Assembly (NCBI RefSeq): GCF_039541115.1
Contig: NZ_BAABFP010000002.1
Span: 806,001 to 870,000, forward strand
Direction of reading: 5' to 3'
Origin: Angustibacter luteus
GTDB lineage: Bacteria > Actinomycetota > Actinomycetes > Actinomycetales > Angustibacteraceae
Length of the DNA: 64,000 bases
The notes under the pieces are model-generated. The model had not been told where the DNA came from and did no database searches. It saw only the letters and a list, made by a program, of their open reading frames with translations. The position numbers were made by a program, and so were the translations under genes. Position 1 is the stretch's first letter, and each line of letters starts with the position of its first letter. Positions 1 to 5,070 of this stretch are shown piece after piece.

Positions 1-2
1 AC

Positions 3-359
3 CTCCGCGGACTTGGCCGTCTCGGTGTCTATATCGCGCGCACCGCCGCATACCTTCGCAGCGTCGAGGCGGGCGAGGTCAACTTCGACATCGGCTTGCT
101 CAGCCAACAACTCGACCAGCCTGGGCTCGCCGACGCAGTTGCTCTTCGCCGTCAGGCGACGTTCTCGCTCTCCGATATCGCAAAGCTGCGTCATGAGATC
201 GAGCGCATCGTGCCAAACGTGCCAAGCGGCCCTATCGAATCCGTTGAGTCGTACGCCATCGCACATGCAGACCATGGGGAACTGGCAATGCTCATGGCCA
301 CGGTGTTGACCGATGAAGACGAGCTGGAGTACAGCGCACTCACCCTCCCCCCGTTCTGA
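3..359 (+). CDS. C-terminal part of an unknown protein (5' end outside window)
   Basis: Frame +3 is open from base 3 (LRGLGRLGVYIARTAAYLRSVEAGEVNFDIGLLSQQ...LTLPPF*). Its TGA overlaps the next ATG (TGATG, 357-361). Confidence 0.7.
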   Translation, partial: LRGLGRLGVYIARTAAYLRSVEAGEVNFDIGLLSQQLDQPGLADAVALRRQATFSLSDIAKLRHEIERIVPNVPSGPIESVESYAIAHADHGELAMLMATVLTDEDELEYSALTLPPF

Positions 360-1036
360 TGCGTGAACGGATCGCGGTCGTCGGTGACGTCCACGGCAAC
401 GCTCGGGCGTTGGCGCGAGCCTTCGAGTGGCTTGAGACTTGGGACGGATTGGTGATCTTCGTCGGGGATTACGTAAACCGTGGCCCGGCATCGCGCGAAG
501 TCGTCGATCACTTGATCCTCGCCAAGGACGCACTCGGCGAGCGCTTGGTGCTCCTGCGTGGCAATCACGACCAAGTGCTGCTGGACTTCATTTCGGGCGA
601 GAGCCCACGCCGACTGCTTTCGCATGGCGGCCTGACCACCGTCAGCAGCTACCTGAAGGGTACGGAGGCTCAGGCGAGCATTGAGACTTTTCGCGAAACC
701 TTTCCCGACGGGCATCTACGTCTCCTAGGCGACACAGGGACGCACTTCGAGACCGACGAGATGCTGGTGTCGCATGCCGGCTATAACCCTGACAGACCAA
801 CAAGTAGGAGGTCAGAAGACTTGGCCTTGGGACGGCATCATGGGATCTTTTCCCGAGGCGCTACTGCACCAAAGGCGCTCATCATCTGCGGCCACTACAT
901 CCAGAGGGGGATGAAGCCGTTCGAGTCGAGGAACCTGATATGCCTTGACACCGGAAGCGGCACGACCGCGGGGGCTCCGCTGACGTTGGTCACGCTGCCA
1001 GATCGCAACTTCTACCAATTCTACGGAGAGACATGA
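359..1036 (+). CDS. Calcineurin-like metallophosphoesterase (PPP/PphA-like)
   Basis: Motifs GDVHG, GDYVNRG, RGNHD, HAG, CGH, DTG. Confidence 0.9.
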   Translation: MRERIAVVGDVHGNARALARAFEWLETWDGLVIFVGDYVNRGPASREVVDHLILAKDALGERLVLLRGNHDQVLLDFISGESPRRLLSHGGLTTVSSYLKGTEAQASIETFRETFPDGHLRLLGDTGTHFETDEMLVSHAGYNPDRPTSRRSEDLALGRHHGIFSRGATAPKALIICGHYIQRGMKPFESRNLICLDTGSGTTAGAPLTLVTLPDRNFYQFYGET

Positions 1037-2163
1037 CGGATCTGAAGGAGGCATGTCGGGACCTTTTCGCGGCGCTCGATGAGGGCAAGCGCGTAATCTG
1101 CATCCACTATAGTTGCGAAAACTTCCACGATGTCACCGACCGCCCTGTTGCGGTGAGCGCCATCGCTGTTTCCGAACTGACCGATGCAACAGGGGGACGA
1201 GAGTCAACCGTCTTCTCCATCGCCAATTCTTCAGCAAACCAAGACCCGGTCGAACGCGAAAAGGAGATGTTTGCCAGATTCTTCGAGTATGCACGCACAC
1301 GCCCCGATGCGTTCTGGGTTCACTGGAATATGAACAACGCCACCTACGGCTTTTCTGCACTGATCTCTCGATACCGTTACCTGTTGGGCTCTGAACCCAA
1401 CAGTCCGTGGCAGAGCAACCGTCTCTTCGATCTTGACTCACTAGTGGGCGCCAGGTACGGCGATCAGTTTGCCAAGCACCCAAAACTCCTGAGTCTTTGC
1501 TCGTTGAATGGGTATTTCCTCTCGTTCTTCAAGGCGGGCCGTGACGAAGCAAAGGCGTTTTCGGACGGCGACTACGGCTTGTGCGAGAGGTCCACTGCGG
1601 AGAAATCACACCTTCTAGCATCTATTTTGACTGACTTCCGTGCGGGATCGCTGCGTACACAAAACTCAGTCGGTTCACTGCACTTTGCATCCGAGCCCCT
1701 AGACGCTGTGAAGGTCGTGCTGGCCATAGGTGATCGCTTTCGATATGTGGAACGGCAACTGCTCCGTCGCCACGCCTCTCGCGACACGCTTAAGATTCAA
1801 GACGAGTACGATGCACAGGATTTGCTCAGGGCGCTCCTTGCCGTGTTCTTCGAGGATATTCGCCCTGAAGAGGTCGCACCAAAGCTTGGCGGCGCCTCCT
1901 CACGCATCGACTTCATTCTTCCCGACTACGCGCTCGCACTAGAGCTGAAGTACGCGCGTAGCAGCATGACTTCAGCTTCACTCGGCGAGGAACTCATCGT
2001 TGATCGAGACCGGTACCAATCTCGGCAAGAGATCCAGCACCTGATCTGTCTGGTATTTGATCACGACGGCCAGCTCGATAACCCGCGTGGCCTAGAACGG
2101 GACCTGAGTCGGGAGGCCAGCCTTGAATCGTTTGCGGTGACCGTTCGGATCTACGACCGGTGA
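1033..2163 (+). CDS. Two-domain protein: uncharacterised (possibly exonuclease-fold) N-domain plus C-terminal DpnII/MboI-like PD-(D/E)XK nuclease
   Basis: C-terminus EYDAQDLLRALL...DIRPEE...RIDF...LELK...D..RY...FDHDG...NPRGLERDL; N-terminus IHYSCENF...HWNM...YGF. ATGA overlap with the upstream gene. Confidence 0.75.
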   Translation: MTDLKEACRDLFAALDEGKRVICIHYSCENFHDVTDRPVAVSAIAVSELTDATGGRESTVFSIANSSANQDPVEREKEMFARFFEYARTRPDAFWVHWNMNNATYGFSALISRYRYLLGSEPNSPWQSNRLFDLDSLVGARYGDQFAKHPKLLSLCSLNGYFLSFFKAGRDEAKAFSDGDYGLCERSTAEKSHLLASILTDFRAGSLRTQNSVGSLHFASEPLDAVKVVLAIGDRFRYVERQLLRRHASRDTLKIQDEYDAQDLLRALLAVFFEDIRPEEVAPKLGGASSRIDFILPDYALALELKYARSSMTSASLGEELIVDRDRYQSRQEIQHLICLVFDHDGQLDNPRGLERDLSREASLESFAVTVRIYDR

Positions 2164-2250
2164 AGGCCGCCACCCCCACCTGGCTAGGGCTTCGCGCCAT
2201 TTCCCCTGTGGCTGACAGTCATGAAAGTGCCCTGACCGGAGGATTCCTGA

Positions 2251-3465
2251 ATGTGGCGCCCTGATTCAGAGAAGCAACTTGTCGACGCTCTATCAAGTGG
2301 CGATGTACGCGAACATCGCGGCTTGGATGTCAAGCGCGAGGTCGGAGACAGCAACGGACCCCGGCGCGAATTGGCGCGGGATCTTGCCGGATTCGCTATT
2401 GATGGTGGCGCCCTGCTGATCGGCGTCGCCGAGGACACAGACACAGGAACGCTCACGCCTAGTCCCGTCCCCCTAGTTGGGCAGGCGGAGCGCATCGAAC
2501 AGGTAGCAGCGACTCGCATCGACCCTCCACTCTTCGTGCAGGTCCGCGCGATTCCAACTGCGAGCGATCCCGCCCGCGGCTACCTCTGGGTTGATGTTCC
2601 ACCCAGCCCGCTAGCCCCCCATATGGTTGAGGGCGCGTATTGGGGCAGGGTCGACAAGACCAAGGGACGGCTCACCGACGCCCAGGTCCTTCGCTTGCAC
2701 GCCGAGAGGAAGTCCGTCGAGGCCAGCATGTCGGCCACCTTGGACCTTGAGATCGAGCGCGATCCTGTCCCTCTCGGCCTTCAGCGCGAGGGCCACTTGT
2801 ACCTTGCCGCGAACCCGCTATCGCCTCAGGCAGACCTTGGACTCGCCTTTCTCAAGCAACGGGACCAGGCTCGCTTGTTTCGACTGATCAACGCCCCAAG
2901 TACGACTCTGTCGAATCGCGCCCGGGGCATTCCCCCGACACCTGAGTACGCCGGTGCGATGCGACTGCGTGCCGAAGGCATTGCCATGAGCTCGCTTTCG
3001 GAGGGTGCACGTGAGAGCCCGGTCAACGCCGATCGCGAGACAGACCTGGTGGACATCGAGTTCCGGGAGGACGGCGGAATCCGAGCCGTCGTGGGACGCG
3101 CAACAACCACCTGGGGCGAGCGACGCGCGATCGTGGACGGGCTCGCCGTGGCCTACGCGCGCCTGATGTTGGGTTGGGCACGAGAGTACGGCTCGGAGTG
3201 TGCCTTCTCTGGGGTGTGGGTCTTTGGTCTTGCCGCCACCGGGCTGAAGAACCTGTCGTCCTCGGTGTACGACAGTTCAAGCATTCGCCGTCAGCCTCCA
3301 ATCTACGACGCTGCGCAGTACCGAGCCGTGACGAGAGCTAGCACCCTCGAGTTGGAGGATCAGCCCTGGGCTGTAGCGGATCGCCTCGTCTCGAAGTTGC
3401 TTCGGAGCTTGGCGACCGAGCAGTACTTCATAGCCGATCTTCAGACACCCAACTCGGCGGGCTAG
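2251..3465 (+). CDS. Schlafen/AlbA_2-domain protein
   Basis: N-terminal E-x3-LDVKRE...ARDLAGFAIDGGALLIGVAE...PPL...VPPSPLAPHMV...YWGR; RBS GGAGG at 2238-2242. Confidence 0.8.
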   Translation: MWRPDSEKQLVDALSSGDVREHRGLDVKREVGDSNGPRRELARDLAGFAIDGGALLIGVAEDTDTGTLTPSPVPLVGQAERIEQVAATRIDPPLFVQVRAIPTASDPARGYLWVDVPPSPLAPHMVEGAYWGRVDKTKGRLTDAQVLRLHAERKSVEASMSATLDLEIERDPVPLGLQREGHLYLAANPLSPQADLGLAFLKQRDQARLFRLINAPSTTLSNRARGIPPTPEYAGAMRLRAEGIAMSSLSEGARESPVNADRETDLVDIEFREDGGIRAVVGRATTTWGERRAIVDGLAVAYARLMLGWAREYGSECAFSGVWVFGLAATGLKNLSSSVYDSSSIRRQPPIYDAAQYRAVTRASTLELEDQPWAVADRLVSKLLRSLATEQYFIADLQTPNSAG

Positions 3466-3707
3466 CCACGACCGGCACGTGCCTCGGCGGCTCGGCATAG
3501 ATCACCGAGCGATAGGTCCAGAGCCCAAGCTAGCCGGGCTGCCACCTGAAGCGTGACTCCACGCTCGCCACGCTCAATCAATCCGACAGACGTGCGGTGG
3601 AGGCCGGCCTCCCCGGCGAGTTGTTCCATGGACCAGCCGCGCTCTCGACGCGCAACCGCCAACTCCTCGGCAACGGAGCGAGCAAACACTTCGTCACGGG
3701 CCGGCAC
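3462..3707 (-). CDS. XRE-family HTH regulator resembling restriction-modification controller (C) proteins
   Basis: RRERGWSMEQLAGEAGLHRTSVGLIERGERGVTL; 81 aa; candidate -10 TAGGTT 6 nt before the GTG start. Confidence 0.85.
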   Translation of the reverse strand: MPARDEVFARSVAEELAVARRERGWSMEQLAGEAGLHRTSVGLIERGERGVTLQVAARLAWALDLSLGDLCRAAEARAGRG

Positions 3708-3742
3708 ATGGCGAACCTACGGACCGTGGCCGCACGACGCCA

Positions 3743-3758
3743 CGAGACTATAGTCTCG
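3743..3758. promoter_or_regulatory. Perfect 16-bp palindrome CGAGACTATAGTCTCG; putative operator (C-box-like GACT..AGTC)
   Basis: Lies between the divergent XRE gene and a hypothetical gene; contains TATAGT (3749-3754). Confidence 0.65.
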
Positions 3759-3761
3759 GCT

Positions 3762-4223
3762 GTGTCCAACGAGACTCCCAAATCGGTACTAGGTGAAGAT
3801 GGCGGCTACTACTGGCCAATGATCGGGACGCCCGTCGCCCGGGAAGAGGCCTGGTCGCGGTTCTGGGCGGTCATGCGGGATGGCCTAGCCGAGCTTGCCA
3901 TGGAAGGCCGGCTGCCAGAGTGGATCGTTGACCCAGACTGCGCCGACGCCATGAAATCAGCCTCAACCCCCGGGGAGGGTCGACGCGCTGCCATGGAGTT
4001 GTGGATCACAAAGCTCATACGCGGCGATGTCGTCGAGATGCAGGTGTTTCCGAATCTCGAGCAGATGGTCTTCGACGGCACCGACGATCTTCGACACGCG
4101 CGTCGGCGAGCGCGACGCGAAGGAATGACAGATGTAGTGGTCAGCCTGGCTGATCGCTACCAGCTGCGCATCGACATAGCGAGGCGCTCGCGATGTAGTG
4201 GCCGTGGCGGAAATAGTCGTTAG
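3762..4223 (+). CDS. Hypothetical protein (island)
   Basis: Open frame; GTG at 3762 lies 7 nt after TATAGT (leaderless-type spacing). Start uncertain, no recognisable motif. Confidence 0.45.
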   Translation: MSNETPKSVLGEDGGYYWPMIGTPVAREEAWSRFWAVMRDGLAELAMEGRLPEWIVDPDCADAMKSASTPGEGRRAAMELWITKLIRGDVVEMQVFPNLEQMVFDGTDDLRHARRRARREGMTDVVVSLADRYQLRIDIARRSRCSGRGGNSR

Positions 4224-4263: not shown

Positions 4264-5070
4264 TTACAAATCGTAGTCAACCGTAACGGCAGCGTGATCA
4301 CTCCATCGCTCAGCGTAACTGCTTGCCCGCCCGACTGTCGCTTTTACCGCTTTCGTAGCCATTTCTCGTGACGCTAAGTGATAATCGATTCGCCAGCCAG
4401 CGTCGTTATCGAACGCCTGCCCGCGCCAGGACCACCACGTGTACGGGCCGGGGCCCTCACCGGCCAGCGCCCGGTGCACGTCCACGTACCCGCCGCGGGT
4501 CGACGTCCACCGGTCGAGCAGCGCTCGCTCCGCGGGCAGGAAGCCGGCCTTGCCGCGGTTGCCCTTCCAGTTCTTCAGATCTGCCTCGCGGTGGGCGACG
4601 TTGAGGTCGCCGGTCACCACGACGTGCCCACCCACCCGGCGCAGCGCACTCATCCGACGTCCCATGGCGTCCAGGAAGCGCAGCTTCGTGTCCTGGCGCG
4701 GGGTACCCGCCTCGCCCGTGTGCACGTACACCGACACGGCGGTGAGCAGCCCGGACTGGGTCGCGACGTCAGCCTCGACCCAGCGGCCGGTACCGGCGAA
4801 CTCGCGACGACCCACCCCGTGCCGGACGTCGAGCGGCTCGTCGCGGGTCAGCACGGCCACGCCGGCGTGCCCGGCGACCAGGCTCGCGTCGTGCGAGACG
4901 TGCCAGCCGGCGAAGGGACCGACGGCGAGGAGCTCGCGCAGCAGGTCGTCGCCGGCGCGCACCTCTTGCAGCGTCAGGACGTCCGGTTGCTGCGCCGCCA
5001 GCCAGTCGAGCCCGCCGCGCCTGGCGGCGGCCCGGATCCCGTTGACGTTGGCGGAGACGACGCGTAGCAC
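4264..5070 (-). CDS. xth: Exodeoxyribonuclease III / AP endonuclease
   Basis: NVNGIRA, LQEVR, GDLNVAH, YTWWSWRG, GWRIDY, SDHA motifs. Confidence 0.95.
   Translation of the reverse strand: MLRVVSANVNGIRAAARRGGLDWLAAQQPDVLTLQEVRAGDDLLRELLAVGPFAGWHVSHDASLVAGHAGVAVLTRDEPLDVRHGVGRREFAGTGRWVEADVATQSGLLTAVSVYVHTGEAGTPRQDTKLRFLDAMGRRMSALRRVGGHVVVTGDLNVAHREADLKNWKGNRGKAGFLPAERALLDRWTSTRGGYVDVHRALAGEGPGPYTWWSWRGQAFDNDAGWRIDYHLASREMATKAVKATVGRASSYAERWSDHAAVTVDYDL

Follow-up and report, generated by a model that had tools for sequence, protein, structure and literature searches.

The Hailong system, a pairing of HalA with HalB, was reportedly described by Tan et al. in 2025 (Nature 643:794). It is a two-gene operon in which HalB constitutively makes tyrosine-primed poly-dA (PMC13434031, PMC13276650, PMC13712596). 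This polymer is trimmed, "probably" by cellular enzymes, to an oligodeoxyadenylate that keeps the HalA channel shut, and a phage 5'-3' exonuclease degrades the oligodeoxyadenylate, opening the channel (PMC13434031). In Hailong, the constitutive DNA oligonucleotide serves as bait for phage nucleases, and the HalA channel is the single effector type known. Related passages deal with Panoptes, composed of mCpol and an effector, and Clover, composed of the dNTPase CloA and the nucleotidyltransferase CloB (PMC12265719, PMC13712596). Here we describe three genes at the start of a 64,000-nucleotide (nt) stretch of the Angustibacter luteus genome (contig NZ_BAABFP010000002.1, also G000:C2, positions 806001 to 870000; hereafter, the window), which encode a nucleotidyltransferase (NTase) of the HalB family, a metallophosphoesterase (MPE), and a nuclease fused to a proposed sensor domain. 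We see a roughly even chance that this trio is a self-contained, horizontally mobile conflict system related to Hailong, most likely anti-phage, with a nuclease effector and a guard logic.

RESULTS

Three coupled genes that travel together

The trio lies at the 5' edge of the window, and we retrieved a further 14 kb of upstream DNA as locus L002, in which each coordinate equals the window coordinate plus 14000. Three open reading frames (ORFs) run in the same direction on the plus strand, at 3 to 359 (open at the 5' edge), 359 to 1036 (225 amino acids, aa), and 1033 to 2163 (376 aa). Read directly, the gene 1/gene 2 junction is a TGATG at 357 to 361, made up of the stop codon TGA (357 to 359) and the start codon ATG (359 to 361). 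The gene 2/gene 3 junction is an ATGA at 1033 to 1036, with a Shine-Dalgarno-like run, GGAGAG, ahead of it at 1025 to 1030. The GC content is 54 to 62% over window positions 1 to 2500, compared with 70 to 76% from window position 4500 onward and in the DNA farther upstream, and 70 to 78% over the surrounding chromosome as a whole.

A scan of one genome per GTDB species with an alignment of gene 3 returned 13 loci, from Hamadaea, two Micromonospora, three Nocardia, Rhodococcus, and metagenome-assembled genomes labeled Micromonosporaceae, Acidimicrobiales, Kofleriaceae, Sandaracinaceae, Verrucomicrobiota, and "uncultured bacterium." The loci span Actinomycetota, Myxococcota, and Verrucomicrobiota. 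By tblastn, an NTase gene (28 to 41% identity) and an MPE gene (32 to 43%) lie directly upstream of gene 3 in the same order and on the same strand in 13 of 13. Judged by candidate start codons, 11 loci place a start 4 nt ahead of the NTase stop, and 7 show a 1- to 4-nt overlap between the MPE and nuclease genes. The flanking genes differ in each locus. The Schlafen gene and helix-turn-helix (HTH) regulator that adjoin the trio in A. luteus do so there only: tblastn found homologues of the Schlafen gene, the HTH gene, a neighboring ORF without family match, and xthA in 0 of the 13 loci. Because all 13 keep the three genes, their order, and their strand, the arrangement is not due to chance; the three genes always travel together.

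A preliminary description of the window had pointed to three co-directional genes with TGATG and ATGA overlaps in lower-GC DNA, to an MPE and a DpnII/MboI nuclease among their products, and to a neighboring Schlafen gene and controller-like regulator. The ORF list and direct reading bear out the overlaps, the GC values agree, Pfam returns both enzymes (E values below) and both neighbors, and PADLOC recovers the regulator (Table 1). The proposal of a tightly coupled module that co-occurs elsewhere holds in all 13 loci, and the phosphoesterase and nuclease motifs it took to be catalytic are invariant among homologues.

A nucleotidyltransferase of the HalB family

The truncated first gene had been guessed to encode a nucleotidyltransferase, and with the upstream DNA in hand that guess proves correct by Pfam, NCBIfam, PDB, and fold comparisons. 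Gene 1 is ~263 aa at full length (L002 13568 to 14359), with its ATG at L002 13568, 433 nt ahead of the window. The longest ORF opens at L002 13220, and this upstream extension overlaps a remnant of xthA on the opposite strand; homologues of 258 to 265 aa agree with the 263-aa start choice. Gene 1 matches Pfam NTP_transf_2 (E = 6.9e-6) and the NCBIfam HalB model (anti_phage_HalB; E = 4.3e-31, 108.2 bits) over profile positions 1 to 197 of 211. It falls short of the 190-bit equivalog cut-off of that model, as do 5 of 5 further homologues (110 to 124 bits, E = 1e-31 to 5e-36).

In a sequence search of the PDB with gene 1 alone, the HalB entries 9dbh, 9dbj, and 9dbi were the sole full-length relatives (E = 1.6e-12). 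A profile of the 14-member gene 1 family matches HalB at E = 4e-24, and the next NTase at 1.2e-6 over a core of ~35 residues alone. The AlphaFold model of gene 1 has a predicted local distance difference test score (pLDDT) of 86.1 and a predicted template modeling score (pTM) of 0.83. All of its top ten Foldseek matches are HalB chains, with HalB-normalized template modeling (TM) scores of 0.81 to 0.85, a root mean square deviation of ~3 Å, and 24 to 26% identity; ANT(4') comes next at TM scores of 0.40 to 0.49.

The motifs GSxAR and SDxD are invariant across the 14 family sequences, and the HalB mutations named in PDB titles, D21A/D23A, align with the invariant SDxD. Three tyrosines, Y76, Y163, and Y256, are also invariant, the last lying within the disordered C-terminal tail of the model. 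Neither the family scan nor the model reveals a distinct phage-sensing domain in the 263-aa NTase. Other NTase groups match over short stretches: MntA is the second-best NCBIfam match (24.3 bits against a 60-bit cut-off; core only, ~25 to 70 residues), and the best PADLOC cyclase model gives E = 0.066 over ~50 residues. Gene 1 is the only HalB-like gene in the host genome. By sequence and predicted fold, it belongs to the HalB family with its active-site motifs intact. Because its score lies below the HalB equivalog cut-off, it belongs to a sister subfamily of HalB, and its product may differ from that of HalB.

A metallophosphoesterase with conserved motifs

Gene 2 matches Pfam Metallophos (E = 1.3e-14) and carries the PPP-type MPE motif set (GDxHG, GD, GNH, H, GH). 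Residues G9, D10, H12, and G13; G36 and D37; and G68, N69, and H70 are invariant in 14 sequences, as are H139, G178, H179, D197, T198, and G199. The DTGxG motif, typical of the lambda-phosphatase/ApaH group, is likewise invariant in the 14. The nearest NCBIfam models are ApaH, PrpA/B, the Pnkp phosphatase domain, and PrpE, all partial matches below cut-off, and the PHROG database returns the NinI-like phosphatase family 246 (E = 7.2e-29) as well as family 8238, labeled "RNA ligase." PADLOC gives only E = 0.045. These motifs and matches identify gene 2 as a predicted lambda-phosphatase/ApaH-type MPE with its catalytic motifs intact. Members of the lambda-phosphatase/PrpE group act on phosphotyrosine. 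A search for the MPE fused within longer proteins gave a single match, an unrelated MPE joined to an O-antigen ligase, which is weak evidence.

A nuclease fused to a probably degenerate exonuclease fold

Residues 230 to 371 of gene 3 match Pfam DpnII-MboI (PF18742; E = 8.5e-42), and the nuclease triad D293, E304, and K306 is invariant in 23 gene 3 sequences. The nuclease domain corresponds to PHROG 29450 (E = 9.6e-37) and to the PADLOC model Aga_Helical-REase (E = 3.1e-24), which aligns to residues 225 to 362 only. The C-terminal part of gene 3 can thus be assigned, on motifs and family matches, as a PD-(D/E)XK nuclease with intact catalytic residues. A search of 5.8 billion proteins, in which 8000 candidates were scored, yielded 251 gene 3 relatives at E ≤ 0.001. 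Of these, the 120 listed are 44 to 100% identical and mostly full-length; every one contains PF18742, and not one carries a functional name. Among the named sources are Agrococcus, Leifsonia, Plantibacter, Humibacter, Microbacterium, Rathayibacter, Micromonospora, Nocardia, and Mycobacteroides.

The N-terminal domain (N-domain) has no sequence match in Pfam, NCBIfam, or the PDB. In the AlphaFold model of gene 3 (pLDDT, 87.1; pTM, 0.84), Foldseek matches, with E values from 5.5e-5, are led by RNase T in complex with single-stranded DNA (ssDNA) and include the exonuclease domains of family B polymerases, 3'hExo, and Maelstrom. VIA-align, which is independent of Foldseek, compared the model with 48,161 chains and gave Z scores of 15.5 to 10.0 over residues ~16 to 207. 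Its best 50 rows are all DnaQ-type exonuclease or exonuclease-like domains, among them ExoI, Pol III epsilon, TREX1, Cap18, Cas2-DEDDh, and the inactive domains of Exuperantia and ESRP1. Because of these structural matches, we assign the modeled N-domain to the DnaQ/DEDD-exonuclease fold.

Thirteen N-domain positions are invariant in the 23 sequences (H25, Y26, E76, H97, W98, N99, M100, D133, D135, H149, K151, S187, and K191), and their pattern departs from that of active exonucleases. Strand 1 ends in HY(S/A)C(E) in place of DxE, with E29 substituted in Nocardia sequences; the residue at the Exo II Asp position varies (T104 here) beside the invariant G106; and the Exo III helix carries SxxxK (S187, K191). 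True DEDDh domains of related genomes, by contrast, read DLETTG/HNAxFD/HRALxDA. A profile-profile alignment of the N-domain with DEDDh domains falls in the expected register (HWN/HN, DLD/vDT), covers Exo II only, and is weak (probability, 2%; E = 0.024). Exonuclease activity of the N-domain is likely lost, judging from these motifs; we stop short of calling this proven because the profile alignment is weak and confined to Exo II.

The proposed sensor domain outside the operon

A profile of the N-domain alone, searched against 1.84 billion representatives of 50% identity clusters, recovered 942 clusters at E ≤ 0.001, 723 at 1e-10, and 237 at 1e-30, most of them 255 to 275 aa long. From this family we picked 24 members for unusual length or domain position. 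Five of them are fused to TIR_2 and one each to a CAP12/Pycsar TIR, Abi_C, and DpnII-MboI; the remaining picked members have no significant family match. The TIR and Abi_C fusions are 414 to 815 aa long (TIR_2: P0135, P0142, P0168, P0172, and P0192; CAP12/Pycsar TIR: P0240; Abi_C: P0221). The N-domain corresponds to the unannotated PHROG 8766 (E = 5.6e-26), and its look-alikes in the protein atlas are labeled "hypothetical protein." On viral contigs, the N-domain profile gave nine pattern matches, none of them confirmed.

As read from the sequences, the ~267-aa class ends in a hydrophobic stretch of ~20 residues. This hydrophobic-tail class, the commonest form of the domain (~262 to 290 aa, or ~255 to 290 aa over the solitary proteins as a whole; e.g., P0145, P0159, P0162, and P0173), has at least 552 metagenomic relatives, of which 80 loci were kept (L016 to L095). 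As far as could be tested, the NTase and MPE pair is specific to the nuclease-fused class. We regard the solitary proteins as candidate single-gene defense or exclusion proteins. On sequence grounds we rejected an identity of the solitary hydrophobic-tail class with HalA, there being no PDB or NCBIfam match; HalA was also missing from the fold-search lists, which is not proof.

A mobile island in xthA

A 50-codon remnant of xthA lies on the minus strand immediately upstream of gene 1 (L002 13192 to 13342). Its peptide is 68% identical (E = 5e-23) to the C terminus of exonuclease III, whose gene occupies window positions 4264 to 5070. Relatives have an uninterrupted xthA, the last ~150 nt of which match the remnant at 82 to 88%, and the match continues from L002 18379 onward at 81 to 85%. 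The window's own last ~115 nt of xthA (4264 to 4379) are just 70 to 74% identical to the 3' end of xthA in relatives. Because the relatives' contiguous gene matches both the remnant and the DNA to the right of the island, we infer that an element of ~5.04 kb (L002 13337 to 18379; window up to ~4379) is inserted into the 3' end of xthA. The island contains the trio, the Schlafen gene, the HTH gene, the ORF without family match, and its own diverged xthA end. Replacing the 3' end of the target gene with a copy of their own is a habit of integrative elements.

A three-way alignment of the remnant, the island-borne end, and an intact xthA of the same genus defines a core of ~28 to 31 nt common to both junctions (L002 13306 to 13336 and window 4380 to 4410). 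The two copies, a direct repeat with a spacing of 5074 nt, are the probable crossover site. Pfam and NCBIfam scans recognized no integrase or transposase family among the island proteins, and a tRNA scan found no tRNA gene in the 18.5-kb region. The gene 1 NTase family was not found in 20 of 20 relatives, 5 of them of the same genus (E ≤ 1e-8), and a sample of 400 other genomes from the phylum yielded no member of the gene 3 N-domain family (E ≤ 1e-5). GC content, the insertion into xthA, and the identity breakpoints all agree with the earlier view that the trio sits in foreign, lower-GC DNA. A scan of the island for promoters and terminators gave 2 and 2 sites, not above shuffle expectation, with a consensus that is uninformative for a high-GC actinobacterium.

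We considered whether the site is a hotspot and rejected this: in the same-genus genome G403, the ~3.5 kb between the protease gene and xthA hold ordinary genes of normal GC, including one for a beta-lactamase-family protein, next to an intact xthA. The G403 locus is an unoccupied site and holds no alternative defense cargo.

Table 1. Features of the trio and its island (window coordinates)
Feature	Position	Strand	Evidence
Gene 1, C-terminal 118 aa, HalB-like nucleotidyltransferase	3..359	+	Pfam, NCBIfam, PDB profile, Foldseek
Gene 2, metallophosphoesterase, lambda-phosphatase (NinI)/ApaH/PrpE type, 225 aa	359..1036	+	Pfam, NCBIfam, PHROG
Gene 3, N-terminal domain, residues 1-222, predicted DnaQ/DEDD exonuclease fold, proposed sensor	1033..1698	+	Model, Foldseek, VIA-align
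Gene 3, C-terminal domain, residues 223-376, DpnII/MboI PD-(D/E)XK nuclease, proposed effector	1699..2163	+	Pfam
Schlafen/AlbA_2-domain protein, 404 aa, island cargo	2251..3465	+	Pfam SLFN_AlbA_2, E 2.5e-6
Cro/C1-type HTH regulator, 81 aa, island cargo	3462..3707	-	HTH_3, E 1.4e-10; PADLOC control protein, E 1.2e-9
~172-aa ORF without family match	~3705-4223	+	Scanned: Pfam, NCBIfam, PADLOC, PHROGs
Island-borne substitute for last ~38 codons of xthA (exonuclease III), island right end	4264..4379	-	Identity comparison
Right copy of ~28-31 nt core, probable crossover site	4380..4410	.	Three-way alignment

Within the island, the stop of the Schlafen gene overlaps the end of the convergent HTH gene, which is divergent from the ~172-aa ORF; these three may form a second, separate defense or regulatory module. 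Outside it, three tandem 16-nt copies, 88 to 100% identical, lie at L002 13084 to 13131 (window -916 to -869). They begin in the last codons of a secreted serine-protease-like gene, span its stop, and end ~60 nt short of the xthA remnant. A second partial copy of this upstream protease gene, at G000:C2:402268-402866, is 77% identical over ~600 nt and is probably an ordinary paralogue.

Surroundings of the trio in other genomes

From the 13 trio loci, 83 flanking ORFs were chosen greedily by length and GC3 and scanned with Pfam, with up to five matches shown per protein. Neighbors of defense or mobile-element type appear in 5 of 13 loci: Barstar, a giant NACHT/AAA_16/TPR protein, and an integrase in Hamadaea tsunoensis (L003); a transposase, Hypoth_Ymh, and NUDIX in L004; PIN_8 in L006; a caspase-domain protein in L009; and a group II intron reverse transcriptase in L011. 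The H. tsunoensis locus looks like a defense island, with a 1283-aa NACHT/AAA_16/TPR STAND-type protein on the minus strand (L003 7647 to 11498) followed by a tyrosine integrase. No methyltransferase family occurs among the island proteins or the Pfam matches shown for the 83 flanking ORFs, so the nuclease would need other means of control.

DISCUSSION

How might the three proteins work together? In the mechanism we favor, the NTase would constitutively make protein-primed ssDNA, probably oligodeoxyadenylate, as HalB does, with priming possibly on the invariant Tyr256 of its disordered C-terminal tail. The phosphoesterase would release this DNA from the NTase or trim it, allowing enzyme turnover and giving a short-lived pool of free oligonucleotide. 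The pseudo-exonuclease domain of gene 3 would bind the 3' end of the oligonucleotide, much as RNase T binds ssDNA, and the nuclease would be held off. A phage nuclease or other phage activity that depletes the oligonucleotide would then free the nuclease to cut DNA and abort the infection. We infer this signaling logic, the role and substrate of the phosphoesterase, the NTase product, the ligand and sensor role of the N-domain, and the anti-phage activity from the comparisons above.

Several lines of evidence support a Hailong-related conflict system of this kind. Kinship of gene 1 to HalB emerges from three independent tests (NCBIfam, PDB profile, and fold), catalytic motifs are invariant in all three enzymes, and the trio is kept in 13 of 13 loci across three phyla. 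Its insertion as an island, together with searches that did not find it in 20 of 20 relatives or in 400 of 400 sampled genomes of the phylum, is consistent with horizontal mobility. The overlapping stop and start codons and the defense- or mobile-type neighbors in 5 of 13 loci also count in favor. The N-domain, for its part, contributes the predicted exonuclease fold, the RNase T-ssDNA complexes as top Foldseek matches, and the modular fusions. A complex prediction for the NTase, MPE, and nuclease (score, 0.00; mark, 0.32) is evidence neither way.

Other observations weigh against this reading. Gene 1 and five homologues, at 108 to 124 bits, lie below the 190-bit HalB cut-off, and their product may differ. 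Loss of the DEDD residues is read from motifs and a weak alignment, and the N-domain may have an unconventional active site. Beyond the five loci with defense- or mobile-type neighbors listed above, 8 of 13 have flanks that are housekeeping or uninformative (e.g., DnaG, YchF, Cmk/EngA, ArgJ, and MacB). Beside the hydrophobic-tail class, hidden Markov models found an NTase or MPE in 0 of 80 metagenomic loci, bar one weak NTase-core match; flanking DNA of 800 nt or more is available upstream in only 48 of these loci and downstream in only 49. No neighbor of this class is conserved, the largest neighbor family being present in 3 of the 80 loci. Copies on plasmids of Agrobacterium, Cereibacter, and Bacillus (L105 to L107) are solitary in 3 of 3 cases and sit beside integrases or recombinases. 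Since solitary forms exist without an NTase, the domain can apparently work without a dedicated synthase, and the case for it as a receptor of the NTase product is the weaker for that.

The solitary forms also bear on the direction of the signal. The NTase could instead stay silent until infection and then make an oligonucleotide that binds the exonuclease-like domain and switches the nuclease on. The phosphoesterase would degrade this signal in the manner of a ring nuclease, averting self-killing and resetting the system; CBASS and type III CRISPR follow a logic of this kind. We consider such an activating logic unlikely. The closest characterized relative of gene 1, HalB, is constitutive and inhibitory (PMC13434031), a precedent to be set against the score of gene 1 below the equivalog cut-off, with which HalB-like constitutive behavior is not required. 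An operon-encoded hydrolase and synthase are the usual layout for signal turnover, and the MPE motifs are intact; the swapping of the sensor among TIR, nuclease, and membrane effectors is also typical of activating systems. Such a scheme nevertheless fits poorly with a 263-aa NTase in which no separate phage-sensing domain is visible, and with solitary sensor-domain proteins that occur without any synthase.

The absence of a synthase beside the solitary proteins is best accounted for by covalent control, resembling that of MntA-HepT. The NTase would nucleotidylylate the nuclease or grow DNA on it, the phosphoesterase would remove the adduct, infection would tip the balance, and the N-domain would sense a phage cue directly. 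HalB chemistry is nucleotidyl transfer to a tyrosine hydroxyl (PMC13434031), the MPE falls in the lambda-phosphatase/PrpE group, and Y26 is invariant in the effector. MntA is indeed the second-best NCBIfam match of the NTase core, but that match is restricted to ~25 to 70 residues and far below cut-off, whereas kinship over the whole protein is to HalB, which modifies itself. The protein-protein contact is, moreover, purely hypothetical, and we hold this alternative to be quite improbable.

A non-immune role, as a DNA-end processing or repair module or an addiction or stabilization cassette of a mobile element, strikes us as very improbable. In its favor, nucleic-acid repair also brings together NTase, phosphoesterase, and nuclease activities, the MPE partially matches the Pnkp phosphatase domain and the PHROG 8238 "RNA ligase," 8 of 13 loci lack defense-type neighbors, and the island sits in the repair gene xthA. 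Against it stand the sporadic distribution (0 of 400 genomes of the phylum, 0 of 20 relatives), the foreign GC of the island and its acquisition by insertion, the fusions of the sensor domain to TIR and Abi_C in other proteins, and the fact that the closest characterized relative of gene 1 is a defense enzyme.

Returning to a Hailong-related guard system, the operon suggests that a HalB-type synthase has been recombined with a nuclease effector, the link being another candidate DNA-binding sensor. The step "probably" left to cellular enzymes in Hailong would, on this view, have a processing enzyme of its own in some lineages. Three small soluble proteins thereby open two questions to test: by what route protein-primed DNA leaves its enzyme or is trimmed, and how a DNA signal can control an effector that is not a membrane protein. 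The N-domain further marks a large family without a Pfam or NCBIfam name, with at least 552 metagenomic relatives of one class and members on plasmids and in a phage protein family, and its TIR and Abi_C fusions point to further undescribed single-gene defense proteins. A bolder proposal makes the degenerate exonuclease domain a receptor of a new class, one that recognizes ssDNA 3' ends and is widespread in prokaryotic immunity, with nuclease, TIR, Abi_C, or membrane-tail outputs. The operon would then read self-made, protein-primed DNA set by a HalB-like writer and a phosphoesterase eraser or unlinkase, and in the solitary forms the domain would respond to the DNA ends of the phage itself. 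This is possible, though we lean against it; if true, it would be the first defense system with its own DNA-signal synthase-hydrolase pair.

Comparison with known systems

Among systems with nucleotide signals other than DNA, Panoptes and Clover resemble the trio in proposed logic: a constitutive nucleotide signal restrains an effector, and its loss on infection is the trigger (PMC12265719, PMC13712596). Their synthases are unrelated to gene 1, their signals are cyclic or small nucleotides in contrast to ssDNA, they have no phosphoesterase partner, and their effectors differ. We found no sequence relationship of the trio to either.

CBASS and Pycsar share with the trio a Pol-beta-superfamily NTase and an effector that combines a sensor domain with a swappable killing domain, and one member of the sensor-domain family bears a CAP12/Pycsar-type TIR. 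Unlike the synthases of CBASS, gene 1 is not a CD-NTase (PADLOC cyclase E = 0.066) and has whole-protein kinship to HalB. The trio's sensor has a predicted DEDD exonuclease fold, not SAVED, STING, or CARF, and Cap2/Cap3-type accessory genes are absent. The type VII toxin-antitoxin pair MntA-HepT likewise sets a minimal NTase to neutralize a nuclease toxin, and its NTase core motif matches gene 1. That match is core-only and below cut-off, however, and the trio differs in having a PD-(D/E)XK DNase rather than a HEPN RNase, and an extra phosphoesterase; Pfam and NCBIfam scans found no HEPN domain in the island.

The nuclease domain family, PF18742, is shared with DpnII/MboI restriction endonucleases and with PADLOC Aga_Helical-REase. 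In contrast to DpnII/MboI restriction-modification systems, the trio has no methyltransferase partner, and in contrast to Aga_Helical-REase, the N-terminal half of gene 3 has a predicted exonuclease fold where the PADLOC models have a helical domain. In Maelstrom, the EXO-like domain of Exuperantia, ESRP1, and the exonuclease-like domain of Pol alpha, the same fold is reused for nucleic-acid binding and not for hydrolysis. These inactive DEDD/RNase H-like domains, which figure among the structural matches of gene 3, differ from the N-domain in being eukaryotic, in having no detectable sequence kinship to it, and in having no role in bacterial immunity.

The trio had not been recognized as a named system. 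This stands insofar as PADLOC-DB v2.0.0 (2023) gives no system-level match, its matches being at domain level only (for the NTase core, the generic MNT-like candidate models PDC-S09/PDC-M05A), and insofar as no title or abstract returned from the PMC and bioRxiv literature describes a HalB-like NTase with a phosphoesterase and a nuclease, a search that did not cover subscription journals and supplements. It needs amending in that gene 1 falls in the HalB family of the published Hailong system. HalA itself is matched by none of the six island proteins in NCBIfam. Genome-wide, the best match to the HalA model NF051894 lies ~490 kb away, covers 56 of 338 positions, and reaches 26.8 bits where the cut-off is 250, and similarly weak matches occur in 5 of 14 control genomes. 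Because the genome has no HalA, the locus is outside Hailong as defined, though its synthase is a HalB relative.

The resemblance to Hailong nevertheless extends beyond one gene. Gene 1 is homologous to HalB over ~185 to 200 residues, with the same predicted fold and the same catalytic aspartates, and both systems are small operons with a toxic-type effector and no separate phage sensor. They differ in that the trio's effector is a putative pseudo-exonuclease joined to a PD-(D/E)XK nuclease in place of the HalA channel, in that the trio has a third, obligatory metallophosphoesterase gene, and in that gene 1 scores below the HalB equivalog cut-off, which places it in a sister subfamily. Because gene 1 belongs to the HalB family, the trio is better called a Hailong variant than an entirely new system.

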